Assembly: GCF_003334305.1 (NCBI RefSeq)
Contig: NZ_QOWS01000014.1
Source of the DNA: Escherichia coli
GTDB taxonomy: Bacteria > Pseudomonadota > Gammaproteobacteria > Enterobacterales > Enterobacteriaceae
Direction: 5' to 3' (one strand)
DNA length: 64,000 nucleotides
Shown here: positions 42,030 to 48,350 of the stretch, piece by piece
How positions within the stretch are numbered: the first letter of the stretch is position 1
Layout: each line of letters begins with the position of its first letter
Made by a program: the position numbers and the translations under genes
The notes under the pieces: model-generated
The model's input: the letters and a program-made list of their open reading frames with translations, nothing else
Databases searched by the model: none
Told to the model about the DNA's origin: nothing

Positions 42030-42590
42030 TCAAAACTGAAAGCGCATCCAGGCAAAGTACACATTGCCATTGTTGTAGGTACCCGGAATGTAGGTCATCT
42101 GAAAAGTCACTGGGCCATAACCCACGGAGGCCAATGGCAGTAGAACCGGGAGAGGGATGTAATTCCAGTTATCGCGTGCCGTTACGCCAGCGGTGAATCC
42201 CAGACCTAAATGAAAATTTTCATCCGCCAGCGGTCGCCAGGTACTTTCCCATCCGTATCCGGCAATCGGTTCCCATTTGTTCCACGAGTCCTTAAATGCC
42301 ATGGCATACAGGCCATGCCAGTTTCCTTTTTCATCCCAACGCGACAGGCCAAAACCGCCACCCCACGGTCGCTCGTTATAGCGATCGGTTTTTTCTTTGT
42401 CGTAAGCGAAACGTGCATGCCAGGTGATGGCAGGAATATATAAATCATAATGTTCAGGCTGTTGCCAGGTTTGTGCAATATTTTCTCTAAACGTTGTCAT
42501 CCACTCATCTGCGTTAGCAAAAACTTTACCAACGCTGATTAACTGAATAAAAACAAAGGAAAAGATAGCGACATATTTACTCACGTTCAT
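42030..42590 (-). CDS. pagP: Lipid A palmitoyltransferase (outer membrane)
   Basis: Internal start gives [25 protein letters not shown], 186 aa. Confidence 0.9.
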
Positions 42591-43178
42591 TTGTGACCAT
42601 AAAACATTTATCAAAAATCTACTACTAGCATAGCAAAGCTACAATTAACATAACCTTAATAGACCCAACATAAAGAATAATCTGAATAGCTGCTCTATTT
42701 ATTTCCGCTTGTTCAAGTTAAATATTTCCGCGCATCGATTAAAGATGATGCGTCGTTTTCTGCGATGGGAATAGTCAAAAAAGAAAAACCAAGTCTTTTT
42801 TGATGACAAAATGCAATCAAGGAAAAATTATTTTATTTTTTAACTAGATACAACAATCATCTTAACGAAGTATATAATATAAATCGTCAACCTATGCTCA
42901 TGTTAGATTATTTTTTGAGCGCACAGCCGCAGCTAACACCATTGCAATTAACAAATTTGCATCAATCCACCATCAATTTACACACATTATTATGTGATAA
43001 TTGCCAACCGCTAAATATGCGTTTTGTTATCTATGTATAAAAACAGCAACTTCAATGTCTTAATGGCAGTTTTTCTTGATTTTAATCAGCATTCATCGCC
43101 AATTTATTGGGCATATTTTTTCCTTAAGCTTTAGGAATTTTTTATTATTTACTTTGGGGCCTGGAGACAGGAAAAATT

Positions 43179-44564
43179 ATGCTGACATTCATTGAACTCC
43201 TTATTGGGGTTGTGGTTATTGTGGGTGTAGCTCGCTACATCATTAAAGGGTATTCCGCCACTGGTGTGTTATTTGTCGGTGGCCTGTTATTGCTGATTAT
43301 CAGTGCCATTATGGGGCACAAAGTGTTACCGTCCAGCCAGGCTTCAACAGGCTACAGCGCCACGGATATCGTTGAATACGTTAAAATATTACTAATGAGC
43401 CGCGGCGGCGACCTCGGCATGATGATTATGATGCTGTGTGGATTTGCCGCTTACATGACCCATATCGGCGCGAATGATATGGTGGTCAAGCTGGCGTCAA
43501 AACCATTGCAGTATATTAACTCCCCTTACCTGCTGATGATTGCCGCCTATTTTGTCGCCTGTCTGATGTCTCTGGCCGTCTCTTCCGCAACCGGTCTGGG
43601 TGTTTTGCTGATGGCAACCCTATTTCCGGTGATGGTAAACGTTGGTATCAGTCGTGGCGCAGCTGCTGCCATTTGTGCCTCCCCGGCGGCGATTATTCTC
43701 GCACCGACTTCAGGGGATGTGGTGCTGGCGGCGCAAGCTTCCGAAATGTCGCTGATTGACTTCGCCTTCAAAACGACGCTGCCTATCTCAATTGCTGCAA
43801 TTATCGGCATGGCGATCGCCCACTTCTTCTGGCAACGTTATCTGGATAAAAAAGAGCACATCTCTCATGAAATGTTAGATGTCAGTGAAATCACCACCAC
43901 TGCTCCTGCGTTTTATGCCATTTTGCCGTTCACGCCGATCATCGGTGTACTGATTTTTGACGGTAAATGGGGTCCGCAATTACACATCATCACTATTCTG
44001 GTGATTTGTATGCTGATTGCCTCCATTCTGGAGTTCCTCCGCAGCTTTAATACCCAGAAAGTTTTCTCTGGTCTGGAAGTGGCTTATCGCGGAATGGCAG
44101 ATGCGTTTGCTAACGTGGTGATGCTGCTGGTTGCCGCTGGGGTATTCGCTCAGGGGCTTAGCACCATCGGCTTTATTCAAAGTCTGATTTCTATCGCTAC
44201 CTCGTTTGGTTCGGCGAGTATCATCCTGATGCTGGTATTGGTGATTCTGACCATGCTGGCGGCAGTCACGACCGGTTCAGGCAATGCGCCGTTTTATGCG
44301 TTTGTTGAGATGATCCCGAAACTGGCGCACTCTTCCGGCATTAACCCGGCGTATTTGACTATCCCGATGCTGCAGGCGTCAAACCTGGGCCGTACCCTTT
44401 CGCCCGTTTCTGGCGTAGTCGTTGCGGTTGCCGGGATGGCGAAGATCTCGCCGTTTGAAGTCGTAAAACGCACCTCGGTACCGGTGCTTGTTGGTTTGGT
44501 GATTGTTATCGTTGCTACAGAGCTGATGGTGCCAGGAACGGCAGCAGCGGTCACAGGCAAGTAA
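43179..44564 (+). CDS. dcuC: Anaerobic C4-dicarboxylate transporter
   Basis: 461 aa polytopic membrane protein. Confidence 0.9.
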   Translation: MLTFIELLIGVVVIVGVARYIIKGYSATGVLFVGGLLLLIISAIMGHKVLPSSQASTGYSATDIVEYVKILLMSRGGDLGMMIMMLCGFAAYMTHIGANDMVVKLASKPLQYINSPYLLMIAAYFVACLMSLAVSSATGLGVLLMATLFPVMVNVGISRGAAAAICASPAAIILAPTSGDVVLAAQASEMSLIDFAFKTTLPISIAAIIGMAIAHFFWQRYLDKKEHISHEMLDVSEITTTAPAFYAILPFTPIIGVLIFDGKWGPQLHIITILVICMLIASILEFLRSFNTQKVFSGLEVAYRGMADAFANVVMLLVAAGVFAQGLSTIGFIQSLISIATSFGSASIILMLVLVILTMLAAVTTGSGNAPFYAFVEMIPKLAHSSGINPAYLTIPMLQASNLGRTLSPVSGVVVAVAGMAKISPFEVVKRTSVPVLVGLVIVIVATELMVPGTAAAVTGK

Positions 44565-44604: not shown

Positions 44605-45285
44605 TCACCCACTGTGGTATATGCGTTGCGGTCTGCCAACTTTGCCGTGAACAATTTCAGCAATAATCAGATGGCGGCTGGCGCAATATTCAAGATAACG
44701 CCTGGCAGTGGTGCGACTGATGGTCAGTGCCTGCGCCACCGTTTCTGCCGTATGTTGCACACCAGGCTCTTTAAACAGTTTTCGCACCGCGTTTAGCGTC
44801 AAGGGATCAATGCCAGTCGGCAGTTCGTCTTTAGGTTCACCGCGAGCATAGGCATTAAACATCTCATCAATTTGCTTCTGGCTGGCGCTATCAATACTTT
44901 CCAGCATATGTTTACGCTGGCGGAAACGGGTTAGCGTTTGCCCCAGCCGTTCATAGGCAATGGGCTTAATGAGATAATCAAATACACCACAACGTACGGC
45001 TTCAGACACCGTTTCCATATCGCTGGCTGCAGTGGTAAACACCACGTCGCCGGGATAATGCGCCTGCACCAGTTCATGCAATAAATTAATCCCTCTGCCG
45101 TCAGGAAGATAGTTATCGAGCAAGATTAGCCCCGGCTTAAAACGCTCGATCATCATTCGGGCCTGCGCCAGGTTTCCCGCCAGTAATATCTGACTGAATC
45201 CGGGAATGTGACGAATATATTCCGCATGCATCTCTGCCAGCGGCGTTTCGTCCTCAACGATCAATAGGGTTAATGGAGCTGTCAT
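44605..45285 (-). CDS. dpiA: Two-component response regulator DpiA (CitB)
   Basis: 226 aa; receiver domain followed by HTH. Confidence 0.9.
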   Translation of the reverse strand: MTAPLTLLIVEDETPLAEMHAEYIRHIPGFSQILLAGNLAQARMMIERFKPGLILLDNYLPDGRGINLLHELVQAHYPGDVVFTTAASDMETVSEAVRCGVFDYLIKPIAYERLGQTLTRFRQRKHMLESIDSASQKQIDEMFNAYARGEPKDELPTGIDPLTLNAVRKLFKEPGVQHTAETVAQALTISRTTARRYLEYCASRHLIIAEIVHGKVGRPQRIYHSG

Positions 45286-46912
45286 TAGGTTTCACTTTCG
45301 GAATATAGATTGAAAACAAGGTACCGCAGGGATCATTATCTTCGAGAGTGATAACACCACCGCAGCGCGTTACGTAGCTGGCAATCAAGTACAACCCAAT
45401 GCCATGTTCACCGGGCTCGTCAGCACGCGTACTGACCCCCTGCTCAAATATTTTGTCTCGTAGAGACTCTGGAACGCCGCAGCCCTGATCGGCGACTTCA
45501 ATCACCACATCATCGCCTTCATCGCTGAGGAATAATTCAACGATCTTGTTTCCTTCATCGCTACGCAGGCTGGCTTCGAAGGCGTTATCAAGTAAATTGC
45601 CCACAATGGCTGCAAACTCGGTGCTATCCAGTCCTGGCGGCAGTTGCGAAAGCTGGCTACCGGGGACAATGATCATTTTTAGCCCCAGTTCCCGGGCGCG
45701 CTGCACTTTACCAAAAAGCAGCCCCGCCACCTGGCGATCGGCAAACGCCTCACGCAGGCTGTCAATAAGCTGTTGCTGGGCCTGAGACTCCCCCTGCACC
45801 ATCGCCAGCACGCGATCATACTCTTTCATCTGCAACAGACCATTGAGCGTCGACATCCAATTGAGATGCTCGTGTCGCAATGTACGAAGGCTCTCGACGT
45901 ATTGTTTTATTTGCGTCAGTTGCGCATTGAGGGTGGAAATTTCGTCTTTACTACGAAAGCTGATAATGGCCCCCAGCAAATCATCACCTGAACGAATAGC
46001 TTCCCGATTGGCAATAACGCTCAGACCGTTAAAGTTAGCCACCACATCCTGACGTTTTTCATCAATCTGTTCGGTAAAGAAATCGGCGGGCCTGACCACT
46101 TCAGCAATGGGTTTACCCAACCATTGCCGTCCGGGAGAGCTCAGCCCCAGCATCTTTCTTGCGTTACGATTGATGGCGGTAATGTAACCATGCGGATCCA
46201 CCGCAATCAGCCCTTCATAAACCGAACTAAACAGCGCCTCTTGCTGACGGACCACGCGTGCGATTTGCTTTGGCTCCATGCCCATCATTTGCCGACGGAT
46301 ATGCGCTGCCAGGAACCACGACAGCAACATCAGAATCCCTAACAGCACGACAAACACGCCTGCCATCGGTAATAAAAACTCAGCCCGCCAGCTATCGATT
46401 TTACTCACCAGGTAGCCAATCGACACCACGCCGATGACTTTTCCATCGTCATCAAAGATTGGCGTTTTGGCGCGCATCGCCATCCCCATTGACCCTTTCC
46501 CGGTAATGAAGTAGCTCTCCCCTTTCTCCAGCGCGCCCTGTTTGGTGAACTGCATAGGATAACCAATTTTCTCCGGATTAGGATGGTAAAGGCGGATCGA
46601 GTGCCGGTCCCCAATCACCACATAATCAAAATCGGTATCTCTTTGTAATTTGTTAGCGATGGTCGCCAGCCGTTTGTAGTCACGCGTTTTCACCGCAGAG
46701 ATGACACTGTCATTGGAGGCAATAATTTTCGCCTGATTCATTGCCATGTCGCGTACATGAAGCGTTAAATAGTCCTCAAAACTGGCCGTAAAATATTGCG
46801 CCAGGGCTGCAATGACAAATATTGAGAACACCAGAATCAGCAAAAAGATACGCAGCGGAAATGCCAGTCTTTGGAAAAATGCAAACTGTTTATTCTCGTT
46901 AAGCTGCAACAT
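45254..46912 (-). CDS. dpiB: Sensor histidine kinase DpiB (CitA)
   Basis: Internal ATG at 46912 gives MLQLNENKQFAFFQRL, 552 aa; two TM segments and a C-terminal kinase domain. Confidence 0.9.
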   Translation of the reverse strand: MLQLNENKQFAFFQRLAFPLRIFLLILVFSIFVIAALAQYFTASFEDYLTLHVRDMAMNQAKIIASNDSVISAVKTRDYKRLATIANKLQRDTDFDYVVIGDRHSIRLYHPNPEKIGYPMQFTKQGALEKGESYFITGKGSMGMAMRAKTPIFDDDGKVIGVVSIGYLVSKIDSWRAEFLLPMAGVFVVLLGILMLLSWFLAAHIRRQMMGMEPKQIARVVRQQEALFSSVYEGLIAVDPHGYITAINRNARKMLGLSSPGRQWLGKPIAEVVRPADFFTEQIDEKRQDVVANFNGLSVIANREAIRSGDDLLGAIISFRSKDEISTLNAQLTQIKQYVESLRTLRHEHLNWMSTLNGLLQMKEYDRVLAMVQGESQAQQQLIDSLREAFADRQVAGLLFGKVQRARELGLKMIIVPGSQLSQLPPGLDSTEFAAIVGNLLDNAFEASLRSDEGNKIVELFLSDEGDDVVIEVADQGCGVPESLRDKIFEQGVSTRADEPGEHGIGLYLIASYVTRCGGVITLEDNDPCGTLFSIYIPKVKPNDSSINPIDR

Positions 46913-47291
46913 TGTTTTCCTTGCGGGTTGTCCCGAGCCTCTTTGACGGATGTAATTAAAATGTTGAATCAAAATACATAGATATTAATTATGATCGTGG
47001 CAAATTTTATTCATTAAATCAATTAAATCACTTAAACCTGCTGGTCATTTCGTAATTACATTAATTAAAAAACTTAAAACCATTAAATAAATAAAAAACC
47101 ACTAACTCTATGTGAAATAAATCAAAATTTCACGCCGAAATACTCCTTAGGATGTATAGCGAAAGGAGAAAAAGATATACCTCGATCACCCCCCTTTCTC
47201 CCAAGTGAAAATAAAAGGTTATCAGTTTGCAACATTGAACAACATTCGTTGCAAATCGATAACAACATGCACCTTCAGGATACTATTTATT

Positions 47292-48350
47292 ATGTTCGGC
47301 AATGATATTTTCACCCGCGTAAAACGTTCAGAAAATAAAAAAATGGCGGAAATCGCCCAATTCCTGCATGAAAATGATTTGAGCGTTGACACCACAGTCG
47401 AAGTATTTATTACCGTAACCCGCGATGAAAAGCTTATCGCGTGCGGTGGAATTGCCGGAAATATTATTAAATGCGTTGCTATCAGTGAATCCGTTCGCGG
47501 TGAAGGACTGGCGCTGACATTAGCCACTGAACTGATAAACCTCGCCTATGAGCGGCACAGCACGCATCTGTTTATTTATACCAAAACCGAATACGAGGCG
47601 CTGTTCCGCCAGTGCGGTTTTTCCACGCTGACCAGCGTACCCGGCGTGATGGTGCTGATGGAAAACAGCGCCACGCGGCTGAAACGCTATGCCGAATCGC
47701 TGAAAAAATTTCGTCATCCAGGGAACAAGATTGGCTGCATTGTGATGAACGCCAATCCCTTCACGAATGGTCACCGTTATCTGATTCAACAAGCTGCGGC
47801 ACAGTGCAACTGGTTGCATCTGTTTTTAGTCAAAGAAGATTCTTCACGCTTCCCCTATGAAGACCGGTTGGATCTGGTGTTAAAAGGCACCGCCGATATT
47901 CCACGCCTGACTGTGCATCGCGGCTCCGAATACATCATCTCCCGCGCTACGTTCCCTTGCTACTTCATTAAAGAACAGAGCGTCATTAACCATTGTTACA
48001 CCGAAATTGATCTGAAGATTTTCCGTCAGTACCTCGCTCCCGCGCTGGGTGTAACTCACCGCTTTGTCGGTACTGAACCCTTTTGTCGCGTTACCGCCCA
48101 GTACAACCAGGATATGCGCTACTGGCTGGAAACGCCGACTATCTCCGCACCGCCCATCGAACTGGTTGAAATTGAGCGGCTGCGTTACCAGGAGATGCCG
48201 ATATCCGCTTCCCGGGTACGTCAACTGCTGGCGAAAAACGATCTCACGGCTATCGCGCCGCTGGTCCCTGCAGTCACGCTGCATTATTTGCAGAACCTGC
48301 TTGAGCACTCCCGCCAGGACGCGGCAGCTCGTCAAAAGACCCCCGCATGA
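47292..48350 (+). CDS. citC: [Citrate (pro-3S)-lyase] ligase
   Basis: Internal ATG at 47292 gives MFGNDIFTRV, 352 aa. Confidence 0.9.
   Translation: MFGNDIFTRVKRSENKKMAEIAQFLHENDLSVDTTVEVFITVTRDEKLIACGGIAGNIIKCVAISESVRGEGLALTLATELINLAYERHSTHLFIYTKTEYEALFRQCGFSTLTSVPGVMVLMENSATRLKRYAESLKKFRHPGNKIGCIVMNANPFTNGHRYLIQQAAAQCNWLHLFLVKEDSSRFPYEDRLDLVLKGTADIPRLTVHRGSEYIISRATFPCYFIKEQSVINHCYTEIDLKIFRQYLAPALGVTHRFVGTEPFCRVTAQYNQDMRYWLETPTISAPPIELVEIERLRYQEMPISASRVRQLLAKNDLTAIAPLVPAVTLHYLQNLLEHSRQDAAARQKTPA

Follow-up and report, generated by a model that had tools for sequence, protein, structure and literature searches.

The 379-bp spacer at positions 46913-47291 of the window (the whole stretch of E. 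coli DNA that was analysed, 64,000 nucleotides) is flanked by the divergent genes dpiB and citC. Open reading frames and RefSeq annotation place it between the divergent operon of a CitA-family sensor kinase and citCDEFXG. The landmarks of the locus are:

46910-46912, minus strand: ATG start codon of dpiB (citA), annotated by RefSeq in 7 genomes; the ATG and its Shine-Dalgarno sequence are kept in the alignment
46918-46922, minus strand: dpiB Shine-Dalgarno sequence AAGGA, conserved in the alignment
46913-47291: divergent dpiB-citC control region, 379 bp, GC 31.7% overall and 22% in the core, 46950-47135
47292-48350, plus strand: citC coding sequence, [citrate (pro-3S)-lyase] ligase, 352 aa, with the RefSeq/PGAP start at ATG 47292

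An earlier note, made from the sequence of this DNA, had described a 379-bp divergent spacer between dpiB and citC, and its coordinates match the RefSeq starts at 46912 and 47292. The gene identities that it proposed (dpiBA and citCDEFXG) agree with the RefSeq names and with the match of CitC to TIGR00124, which covers the full length of the model at 591.4 bits (cut-off 262.1). The RefSeq start of dpiB, ATG 46912, is codon 21 of a 572-codon ORF (45254..46972), and the 20-codon extension of that ORF upstream to TTG 46972 contains 0 invariant columns in 46913-46949. The region is strongly AT-rich, as the same note had held: its GC fraction is 0.317 versus 0.501 for the whole window, a value as low as this is found in just 0.7% of all 379-bp windows, and the pagP-dcuC spacer is the sole spacer in the window with a lower GC.

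The sequence is a 100% match to STEC strains, and the spacer is about 99% identical among seven aligned sequences (the window and six other E. coli strains). Conservation is much stronger in the spacer core than at neutral sites. Among 15 sequences from Escherichia, Citrobacter, Salmonella and Intestinirhabdus, 48% of the columns in 46950-47160 are invariant, versus 13.9% of citC third codon positions in the same 15 taxa.

The spacer is the already known region from which the citrate-fermentation locus of E. coli is controlled in both directions. To the full reading, in which this known control region serves dpiBA (citAB, the citrate two-component system) and citCDEFXG(T), has the architecture predicted below and is followed by a citC gene starting at 47292, we assign a probability of about 0.88. 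DpiA-type, anaerobic control had been suggested for the region from its composition, and published work supports this: a citrate response dependent on DpiA/CitB is documented by studies of the homologous regions of C. rodentium and K. pneumoniae and of a PcitC-gfp fusion. When the DpiA sites of the C. rodentium spacer, which had been mapped by aligning it with the EcoCyc sites of E. coli, were removed, the citrate response was lost in a heterologous reporter, and NarL and cAMP-CRP cross-regulate the same spacer (bioRxiv 10.1101/2023.10.13.562223). PMC2735749 describes binding of K. pneumoniae CitB to A+T-rich targets in the equivalent divergent region, along with CRP sites located there. The PcitC-gfp fusion, covering 46845-47202, showed about 2-fold induction by anaerobiosis plus citrate (PMC4683798). 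An RpoS-holoenzyme SELEX peak also lies within the spacer.

Conserved blocks and a predicted citC promoter

Several blocks stand out in the cross-taxon alignment, listed here from the dpiB side to the citC side:

46951-46965: block TGTAATTAAAATGTT, resembling an ArcA-type direct repeat (TGTaA-N6-TGTTg), invariant except at columns 46957-46958
46993-47006: conserved block GATCGTGGCAAATT
47014-47036, plus strand: array 1, three TTAAA units at exact 9-bp spacing (47014, 47023, 47032), nearest dpiB
47056-47096, plus strand: array 2, five 9-bp-phased units (TTACA, TTAAA, TTAAA, TTAAA, TAAAA) with its core at 47065-47087, nearest citC
47111-47126: CRP-like site TGTGA-AATAAA-TCAAA, invariant in 15 taxa and present in 41 of 64 loci
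47141-47156: NarL/NarP-like 7-2-7 inverted heptamers TACTCCT-TA-GGATGTA, overlapping the predicted -10 hexamer
47148-47153, plus strand: predicted citC -10 hexamer TAGGAT, which is TACGAT in most other genera

Exact 9-bp TTAAA triples occur twice in the spacer and in none of 2000 shuffles, and the pattern is unique to the spacer in the 64-kb window (0 expected). TTAAA triples recur, solely at 9-bp spacing, at a comparable position upstream of citC in six genera (Escherichia, Citrobacter, Salmonella, Intestinirhabdus, Atlantibacter and Providencia). Array 1, in which 13 columns within 47014-47026 are invariant, is a putative DpiA/CitB or DcuR binding array, and array 2 a putative DpiA/CitB binding array. 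Judged by sequence, both are probably DpiA sites, and the 9-bp-phased triplets may be the true DpiA recognition code at this locus. As a general DpiA signature the arrays were rejected, being missing from the uxaC-exuT and mdh-argR spacers. The mdh spacer is reportedly a CitB target, according to Yamamoto 2008. For uxaC-exuT, the attribution to DpiA comes from Myers 2013 (Table S9).

The dpiB-proximal block consists of two runs, 46951-46956 and 46959-46965, that are invariant in the 15 taxa. Its resemblance to the ArcA direct-repeat consensus (TGTTA repeats 11 bp apart; 2 mismatches over 46951-46966) is at chance level in the window, with 52 matches versus 46 expected, and the main text and the supplements examined of the ArcA ChIP study of Park 2013 make no mention of citC/dpiB as a bound site. 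Matches to the CRP, NarL, ArcA and FNR consensus sequences each occur at or near chance frequency in the window and were given weight solely where conserved; the candidate assignments of blocks to DpiA, CRP, NarL and ArcA draw on consensus resemblance together with conservation.

The CRP consensus match at 47111-47126 is, by itself, non-significant in the window. A hexamer of the form TA(C/G)GAT (TAnnnT, with a background frequency of 2.2% per position) follows the CRP-like motif by exactly 21 nt in 41 of the 41 loci that carry the motif, which are phylogenetically related and hence not independent observations; the bases between the two elements diverge. This geometry sets the CRP centre at -41.5 from a predicted start near 47160, and the spacing fits a class II promoter starting there. 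No recognisable -35 hexamer is present, a simple scan for sigma-70 promoters and terminators found neither on the plus strand of the spacer, and a permissive hexamer scan of the spacer gave weak candidates alone. The transcription start tables of Kim 2012 hold no entry for the spacer. A sigma-70 ChIP peak described as "within dpiB" falls outside the spacer, about 370 bp into the gene. The NarL-like site has 2 mismatches to TACYYMT-N2-AKRRGTA, a match at chance level (3 in the window versus 2.8 expected), and is conserved in Escherichia, Citrobacter and Salmonella.

The right half of 47111-47126 also fits an FNR half-site, and the element could be an FNR site (gTGAa-N4-ATCAA), rather than a CRP site, that gives anaerobic induction. 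ATCAA is a perfect FNR half-site, a centre at -41.5 suits class II FNR promoters, and the operon is expressed anaerobically. The left half, TGTGA, is however a perfect CRP half-site that agrees with FNR at 3/5 positions only, and CRP control has been reported for both the C. rodentium and the K. pneumoniae regions. The supplementary tables of Myers 2013 do not name citC/dpiB as a site bound in FNR ChIP, and Tables S5-S7 there give neither an FNR ChIP peak nor a predicted FNR site for these genes. Assignment of the site to FNR is unlikely.

The start codon of citC

Two features bear directly on where citC translation begins:

47205-47207, plus strand: GTG that opens a 381-aa citC reading, not a genuine start; the triplet is CTG, TTG, ATG or ACG in relatives
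47276-47280, plus strand: citC Shine-Dalgarno sequence CAGGA, 11 nt before the ATG, conserved across Enterobacterales, -4.1 kcal/mol

It had been pointed out in the earlier note that the citC ORF runs 29 codons upstream of 47292, and the frame is indeed open to GTG 47205, which would give a protein of 381 aa (MKIKGYQF...); TTG 47235 is a second in-frame upstream candidate. The choice of 47292 made in that note holds up on conservation, the Shine-Dalgarno sequence and the family profile, whereas its description of the start as ambiguous does not, as the matter can be resolved computationally. Both ATG 47292 and CAGGA are kept in 64 of the 79 related loci that are long enough for start-codon analysis, and the N-termini of Vibrio homologues lie within a few residues of ATG 47292. 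The aligned part of TIGR00124, positions 1-335, matches residues 36-371 of the long ORF (residues 7-342 of the 352-aa form), so that the extension falls outside TIGR00124, as it does outside Pfam domains. PGAP annotates a 352-aa CitC in 7 of 7 genomes checked.

The upstream GTG is present in all seven aligned E. coli sequences and is limited to E. coli proper; its position is occupied by CTG in Salmonella and in each of four further Escherichia species or clades compared, and by TTG, ATG or ACG in the aligned Citrobacter sequences. It has no Shine-Dalgarno sequence, the duplex energy being +0.3 kcal/mol versus -4.1 for ATG 47292. No coding pattern is seen in 47205-47291, where invariant columns by codon position number 10, 6 and 11 of 29. 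In 6 of 15 relatives the extension measures 86 nt instead of 87 nt and is thus frameshifted, and in 4 of the 15 it contains in-frame stops. The stretch 47205-47291 is a non-coding, untranslated leader, and citC translation therefore starts at ATG 47292.

Production of both forms, with a minor long isoform initiated at GTG 47205 or TTG 47235 as a recent lineage-specific N-terminal extension, would accord with the joint occurrence of the GTG and the open frame in E. coli and with a weak AAGG upstream of TTG 47235 (duplex energy -3.4 kcal/mol). It is nonetheless highly improbable, since TTG 47235 is TCG in 2 of the 6 other E. coli strains aligned, the GTG has no ribosome-binding sequence, both candidates lie in or beside a stable hairpin, and there is no sign of selection on the peptide. 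Translation from GTG 47205 as the source of CitC, the 381-aa form of the original EDL933 annotation (Z0762; NC_002655 gives citC as 1146 bp), can point to the open frame and to the GTG shared by the seven E. coli sequences, but is scarcely credible against the replacement of that GTG outside E. coli, the frameshifts and stops, the lack of coding-type conservation and of a Shine-Dalgarno sequence, the position of the extension beyond the family domains, and the present RefSeq start.

The 381-aa CitC of the older EHEC EDL933 annotation had gone unmentioned in the earlier note; this model, which persists in older EHEC records, should give way to the 352-aa model. A 12-codon upstream ORF at 47267, overlapping the citC ATG, was also considered and rejected, because E. 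albertii and one Escherichia clade have lost its ATG.

The citC leader and the antisense gene nog1

With citC starting at ATG 47292, the sequence upstream holds the following:

47160-47291, plus strand: predicted citC 5' leader of about 132 nt, with a transcription start near 47160 deduced from the CRP/-10 geometry
47206-47244: TGAAAAnAAAAnGTTAT-N5-TGCrAC-N6-CAACA, an element of the leader that is conserved in at least 7 named genera without change in its internal spacing
47218-47263: hairpin formed by a 16-nt inverted repeat, -16.5 kcal/mol, z = -5.0; its minus-strand continuation is CUUUUAUUUUCAC
47222-47527, minus strand: nog1, a published antisense ORF of 101 codons with a GTG start, its last 70 nt in the citC leader

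The conserved element lies within the stretch that the earlier note had treated as a possible extension of the protein, and was passed over there. It is unique in the window, and its distance from the flanking signals varies, from 42 to 64 nt from the -10 hexamer and from 57 to 97 nt from the ATG. By eye, none of the sigma-54, sigma-32, sigma-28, IHF, Fur (10/19), Cra and ModE consensus sequences fits it. The element could be a second, proximal promoter, which would shorten the leader from 132 nt to about 39 nt.

It might also be asked if the block 47206-47244 encodes a product of its own, as a small upstream ORF, a small RNA or a functional 3' part of nog1. The conservation of a block with fixed geometry in at least seven named genera would suit such a product, as would a first triplet of ATG, GTG or TTG in many taxa and a nog1 ORF that is intact, with its GTG start, in all five of the Escherichia loci examined outside the window. 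However, about ten taxa have CTG or ACG as the first triplet, and neither a conserved Shine-Dalgarno sequence nor a codon-position signal is seen. No Rfam match and no conserved RNA structure were found, and outside Escherichia nog1 has no start codon, yet the block is conserved. A product encoded by the block is thus very unlikely. It is possible, although we hold this only tentatively, that the 87 nt formerly assigned to the N-terminus of CitC hold a distinct cis-regulatory module (a proximal promoter, or an operator for a regulator of citrate lyase expression) and that the phased TTAAA units are a DpiA code.

The hairpin at 47218-47263 has an AT-rich stem and a 14-nt loop, drew no call in a terminator scan, and is degraded in its right arm outside E. 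coli. RNAalifold predicted no pairs in the leader across 15 taxa, and on this result both the hairpin as a conserved RNA structure and a long-range pairing of 47205-47213 with 47306-47314 as a conserved element were rejected. An Rfam scan of 46000-48000 returned a sole, spurious match to the snoRNA SCARNA7 (17 bits, E = 0.18). The antisense transcript of nog1 probably ends at the hairpin and CUUUUAUUUUCAC, which may act as its terminator; a terminator after nog1 has been predicted (Fellner 2015, PMC4683798).

In the same publication nog1 is described, on the 381-aa annotation, as completely embedded in citC. With the citC start at 47292, it follows that nog1 is not fully embedded. The overlap of nog1 with 47222-47291 had been omitted in the earlier note. 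If the reading of the leader as a regulatory module and of the TTAAA units as a DpiA code is true, the picture of nog1 within citC would need revision, with the 3' end of nog1 overlapping the promoter and leader region.

Proposed architecture and comparison with known systems

From left to right, the order of elements is the dpiB Shine-Dalgarno sequence and ATG, the blocks 46951-46965 and 46993-47006, the arrays, the CRP site, the -10 hexamer with the NarL-like site, the leader, CAGGA and the citC ATG. In the arrangement proposed, both TTAAA arrays (47014-47036 and 47056-47096) would be landing sites of phospho-DpiA for two divergent promoters. CRP bound at 47111-47126, centred 41.5 bp upstream of the predicted start at about 47160, would make the citC promoter class II CRP-dependent and DpiA-activated, and a NarL-type 7-2-7 site over the -10 hexamer would allow nitrate repression by occlusion. 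The leader of about 132 nt would then hold the conserved element 47206-47244 and the Escherichia-specific hairpin 47218-47263.

The AT-richness could instead mark DNA silenced non-specifically by H-NS/StpA, without sites for specific regulators. The core GC of 0.22 is in keeping with this, as is the finding, in Myers 2013 (Table S11), that citC, D, E, F, X and T are oxygen-dependent solely in an hns/stpA mutant. Discrete invariant blocks, exact 9-bp phasing and a spacing of 21 nt fixed across genera nevertheless exceed what composition would produce, and Table S3 of Myers 2013 names no H-NS ChIP-chip peak for citC/dpiB. Silencing as the whole explanation is most improbable; an H-NS overlay on specific sites may well exist, as an addition to the arrangement proposed above and not as an alternative to it.

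Nothing in this analysis alters the understanding of citrate fermentation control. The promoter geometry does offer targets to builders of citrate biosensors, namely the putative DpiA arrays, the CRP-like site at -41.5, the NarL-like site over the -10 hexamer, and the leader element.

The nearest known system is the E. coli K-12 citAB(dpiBA)-citCDEFXGT control region recorded in EcoCyc/RegulonDB, for which Yamamoto et al. 2008 and Scheu et al. 2012 are said to be the primary sources. It has the same genes, orientation and spacer, and there is essentially no difference, the window carrying a STEC-type allele that is about 99% identical; the spacer is 378 bp in MG1655 versus 379 bp here, differing by one C in a C-run. 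To what is known of K-12, cross-genus inference adds the phasing of TTAAA units at 9 bp, the fixed 21 nt between the CRP-like site and the hexamer, and the leader element. The K. pneumoniae citS-citC region (Bott 1995; Meyer, Dimroth and Bott 1997; Meyer 2001, as cited in PMC2735749) is likewise divergent and A+T-rich, but its partner operon is citS-oadGAB-citAB. The locus is paralogous, with a CitC only about 55% identical, and both the 9-bp TTAAA arrays and the CRP-like motif are undetectable upstream of its citC.

The predicted citC promoter can also be set beside class II CRP promoters. In class II CRP-dependent promoters, such as galP1 and melR, the CRP site is centred at -41.5. The distance here from the CRP-like centre to the -10-like hexamer fits that value, and a recognisable -35 hexamer is lacking; the predicted citC promoter differs in that it would also need an upstream response regulator and has a start deduced from its geometry, and in that its right half-site is TCAAA, not TCACA.

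A final comparison is with the nog1/citC pair of Fellner et al. 2015 (PMC4683798). The minus-strand ORF at 47222-47527, with 101 codons and a GTG start, corresponds to the published nog1, and the difference lies in citC. When citC begins at 47292, its leader takes in the final 23 codons and the stop codon of nog1 together with the hairpin. Although nog1 was reported to be a de novo gene lying wholly inside citC, only about 77% of its sequence is shared with the citC coding region.

The dpiB-citC spacer and its surroundings

The citrate-fermentation locus of E. coli, as read from open reading frames and RefSeq annotation, surrounds the divergent spacer at 46913-47291:

dcuC, left of the spacer, plus strand
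dpiA and dpiB, left of the spacer, minus strand
citC, citD, citE and citF, right of the spacer, plus strand

An earlier note had described these 379 bp as a strongly AT-rich divergent region, and both points are confirmed: the interval coincides exactly with the annotated spacer, and its GC content is 0.317 versus 0.501 for the window, a value matched or undercut by 0.7% of all 379-bp windows. GC falls to 0.22 in the core (46950-47135). The most AT-rich part of the window is the pagP-dcuC spacer upstream of dcuC (42400-43262), where the minimum over 379 bp, 0.288, lies below that of the dpiB-citC spacer. A 1-kb query spanning the latter found matches in 5421 of 5426 complete E. coli genomes, with 100% identity to two STEC strains. 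MG1655 has the same layout (b0618, citC; b0619, dpiB) and a spacer of 378 bp, the one-base difference from the window being C6 versus C5 at 47189-47194. This run, within the predicted citC leader, is length polymorphic among E. coli strains: C6 occurs in the window, O157 and some others, and C5 in K-12-like and some B2-type strains. The spacer is the already known dpiBA-citC control region, and its recognition in the earlier note was correct and ordinary. Beyond annotation, computational inference adds the 9-bp phasing of TTAAA, a fixed CRP-to-hexamer geometry, a conserved leader element, and a correction to the "embedded" status of nog1.

All seven genomes inspected have their RefSeq starts at 46912 for dpiB and 47292 for citC. 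The dpiB ATG and its AAGGA Shine-Dalgarno sequence are conserved; an upstream extension of that frame (minus strand, 20 codons to TTG 46972) is spurious in the same way as that of citC, and 46913-46949 holds no invariant column among 15 taxa. The dpiB stop and dpiA start overlap by 32 nt (45254-45285), which is unusually long for a kinase/regulator pair. A sigma-70 ChIP-seq peak enhanced under anaerobiosis and placed "within dpiB" (Myers 2013) converts to about 46545, some 370 bp inside the gene, and a simple scan places a promoter-like TTGTCA-17-TATTTT at 46818..46790 on the minus strand, also within dpiB; either may mark an internal promoter.

Start codon of citC and the overlap with nog1

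Translation of citC begins at ATG 47292, and 47205-47291 is untranslated. The earlier note had chosen this start, which agrees with current RefSeq, and had correctly seen the frame open for 29 codons upstream, to 47205, a GTG; its view that the true start is ambiguous does not survive. The long frame would give a 381-aa product beginning MKIKGYQF, with TTG 47235 as a second in-frame upstream candidate, and was used in the original EDL933 annotation (Z0762, 1146 bp; quoted in PMC4683798).

From a collection of one genome per species, 80 loci encoding CitC relatives were retrieved, 79 of them long enough for start analysis. Two public assemblies are probably contaminated or mislabelled: a 484-bp contig labelled Terrisporobacter mayombei (L084, NZ_JAHZMP010000157.1) shares 99% identity with E. 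coli citC, and one labelled Chryseobacterium sp. 18061 (L038, CACSKA010000002.1) carries an enterobacterial citC near-identical to that of "Citrobacter sp. 18056".

At the position of residue 1 of the 352-aa protein, 64 of the 79 loci have ATG, followed by MF(G/S)N; Escherichia, Citrobacter, Salmonella and many further genera have CAGGA about 11 nt before this ATG. The nearest start in Vibrio homologues is 4-6 codons ahead of aligned residue 7, so that their N-termini coincide with that of the 352-aa form. GTG 47205, at codon -29, is specific to E. coli among the aligned relatives, the triplet being CTG in two cryptic Escherichia clades, E. whittamii, E. albertii and Salmonella, and TTG, ATG or ACG in Citrobacter species. 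TTG 47235 is TCG in two of six other E. coli strains aligned. A coding signature is absent from the 87 nt of 47205-47291 (10, 6 and 11 of 29 columns invariant by codon position); the extension measures 86 nt instead of 87 nt in 6 of 15 relatives and contains in-frame stops in 4 of 15. Anti-Shine-Dalgarno duplex energies are -4.1 kcal/mol for ATG 47292, -3.4 for TTG 47235 and +0.3 for GTG 47205. Positions 1-335 of the curated CitC model TIGR00124 align with residues 36-371 of the long frame, whose 29 extra residues have no Pfam match. Together, the conserved ATG and CAGGA, the E. coli-only GTG, the noncoding 87 nt, the duplex energies and TIGR00124 fix the start at 47292. A 12-codon out-of-frame uORF (47267-47305, MHLQDTIYYVRQ and stop) overlaps the citC start codon and was rejected, its ATG not being kept even within Escherichia.

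The assignment bears on the published EHEC "novel overlapping gene" nog1 (PMC4683798), a minus-strand ORF of 101 codons with a GTG start at 47222-47527, described as "completely embedded" in citC on the 381-aa annotation. With citC starting at 47292 it is not: its last 70 nt and stop codon fall in the citC leader, outside the coding sequence. The same leader contains, in E. coli, a 16-nt inverted repeat (47218-47233 and 47248-47263) folding into a hairpin of -16.5 kcal/mol (z = -5.0), whose right arm decays outside E. coli and which is followed on the minus strand by CUUUUAUUUUCAC; hairpin and T-run are probably the terminator predicted by the nog1 authors. The ORF and its GTG are intact in all five Escherichia loci examined besides the window; in Citrobacter and Salmonella the start position reads GTC or GTA, and Salmonella has an early stop, a distribution that agrees with the authors' phylogeny (PMC4683798).

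Predicted promoter and leader of citC

Conservation was assessed over 15 sequences from Escherichia, Citrobacter, Salmonella and Intestinirhabdus, with citC third codon positions in the same taxa (13.9% invariant) as a near-neutral yardstick.

Invariant columns and conserved blocks in the spacer
46913-46949, 0% invariant
46950-47160, 48% invariant
47161-47204, 4.5% invariant
46951-46965, block TGTAATTAAAATGTT
46993-47006, block GATCGTGGCAAATT
47014-47026, block TTAAATCAATTAA
47062-47083, block TAATTAAAAAACTTAAAACCAT
47111-47127, block TGTGAAATAAATCAAAA
47139-47156, block AATACTCCTTAGGATGTA

At 47111-47126, TGTGA-N6-TCAAA has one mismatch to the CRP consensus, a match not significant alone (3 in the window versus 1.9 expected). 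A relaxed form, [T/A]GTGA-N6-TC[A/C/T][A/C/T]A, sought within 450 nt upstream of citC, is present in 41 of the 64 loci with ATG at residue 1, and in all 41 a TAnnnT hexamer follows exactly 21 nt later (TACGAT 27, TAGGAT 10, four other variants once each; background 2.2% per position), across 21 nt that diverge widely between genera. With TAGGAT at 47148-47153 as the -10 hexamer, transcription would begin near 47160 and the CRP site would be centred at -41.5, hence in class II geometry. The right half of the site is also a perfect FNR half-site; CRP is preferred because the FNR ChIP study of Myers 2013 names, in its supplementary tables, no FNR peak or predicted site for citC or dpiB. A NarL/NarP-type 7-2-7 site, TACTCCT-TA-GGATGTA (47141-47156), has two mismatches and is at chance level alone, and is conserved in three genera; it shares bases with the predicted hexamer, which bound NarL would occlude. 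At 46951-46965 the near-invariant block is similar to an ArcA direct repeat, its consensus match being at chance level, and citC and dpiB are absent from the ArcA ChIP tables of Park 2013.

A gfp reporter driven by 46845-47202, ending 3 nt short of GTG 47205, was about 2-fold higher under anaerobiosis with citrate (PMC4683798), which fits a regulated start lying upstream of 47203. Genomic SELEX gave an RpoS-holoenzyme peak in the spacer (PMC5493296). In Myers 2013 (Table S11), citC, D, E, F, X and T responded to oxygen only when hns/stpA were mutated, which suggests H-NS silencing overlaid on specific sites.

The predicted start gives E. coli a citC leader of about 132 nt, and some genera have this promoter module only 37-50 nt from the citC ATG. 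The longer leaders have in common TGAAAAnAAAAnGTTAT-N5-TGCrAC-N6-CAACA (47206-47244, its single occurrence in the window), with fixed internal spacing in at least seven named enterobacterial genera (Escherichia, Citrobacter, Salmonella, Intestinirhabdus, Buttiauxella, Hafnia, Edwardsiella) and one further enterobacterium. It lies 42-64 nt from the -10 and 57-97 nt from the citC ATG. Its bases are those read in E. coli as GTG AAA ATA AAA GGT TAT, the first being variable (G, C, T or A); neither a Shine-Dalgarno sequence nor a coding pattern was found for it, and the citC leader has no conserved structure by RNAalifold and no Rfam match. The element may serve as a second, proximal promoter, as an operator or at the RNA level.

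Phased TTAAA arrays and DpiA

The spacer has seven copies of TTAAA, all in the citC-sense orientation, and six of them form two triples of exact 9-bp spacing:

47014/47023/47032, plus strand, TTAAA triple 1
47065/47074/47083, plus strand, TTAAA triple 2

No such triple arose in 2000 dinucleotide-preserving shuffles of the spacer. A search tolerating one mismatch finds four occurrences in the 64-kb window, all in the spacer (expected zero), and lengthens the second array to five units (47056-47096). In Escherichia, Citrobacter, Salmonella, Intestinirhabdus, Atlantibacter and Providencia, triples lie 212-282 nt ahead of the citC ATG, and their spacing is 9 bp only, never 8, 10 or 11.

The arrays are putative response-regulator binding sites, an assignment with three supporting reports. 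Yamamoto in 2008 reportedly found CitB binding in the dpiB-citC spacer, and Scheu in 2012 is said to have placed a DcuR site upstream of citAB. Neither the uxaC-exuT nor the mdh-argR spacer of K-12 contains such arrays, which argues against a general "DpiA code". For K. pneumoniae, references given in PMC2735749 describe binding of CitB to A+T-rich targets in the analogous region; in the C. rodentium spacer, removal of the DpiA sites, which had been placed by aligning it with the E. coli sites of EcoCyc, abolished the citrate response (bioRxiv 10.1101/2023.10.13.562223).
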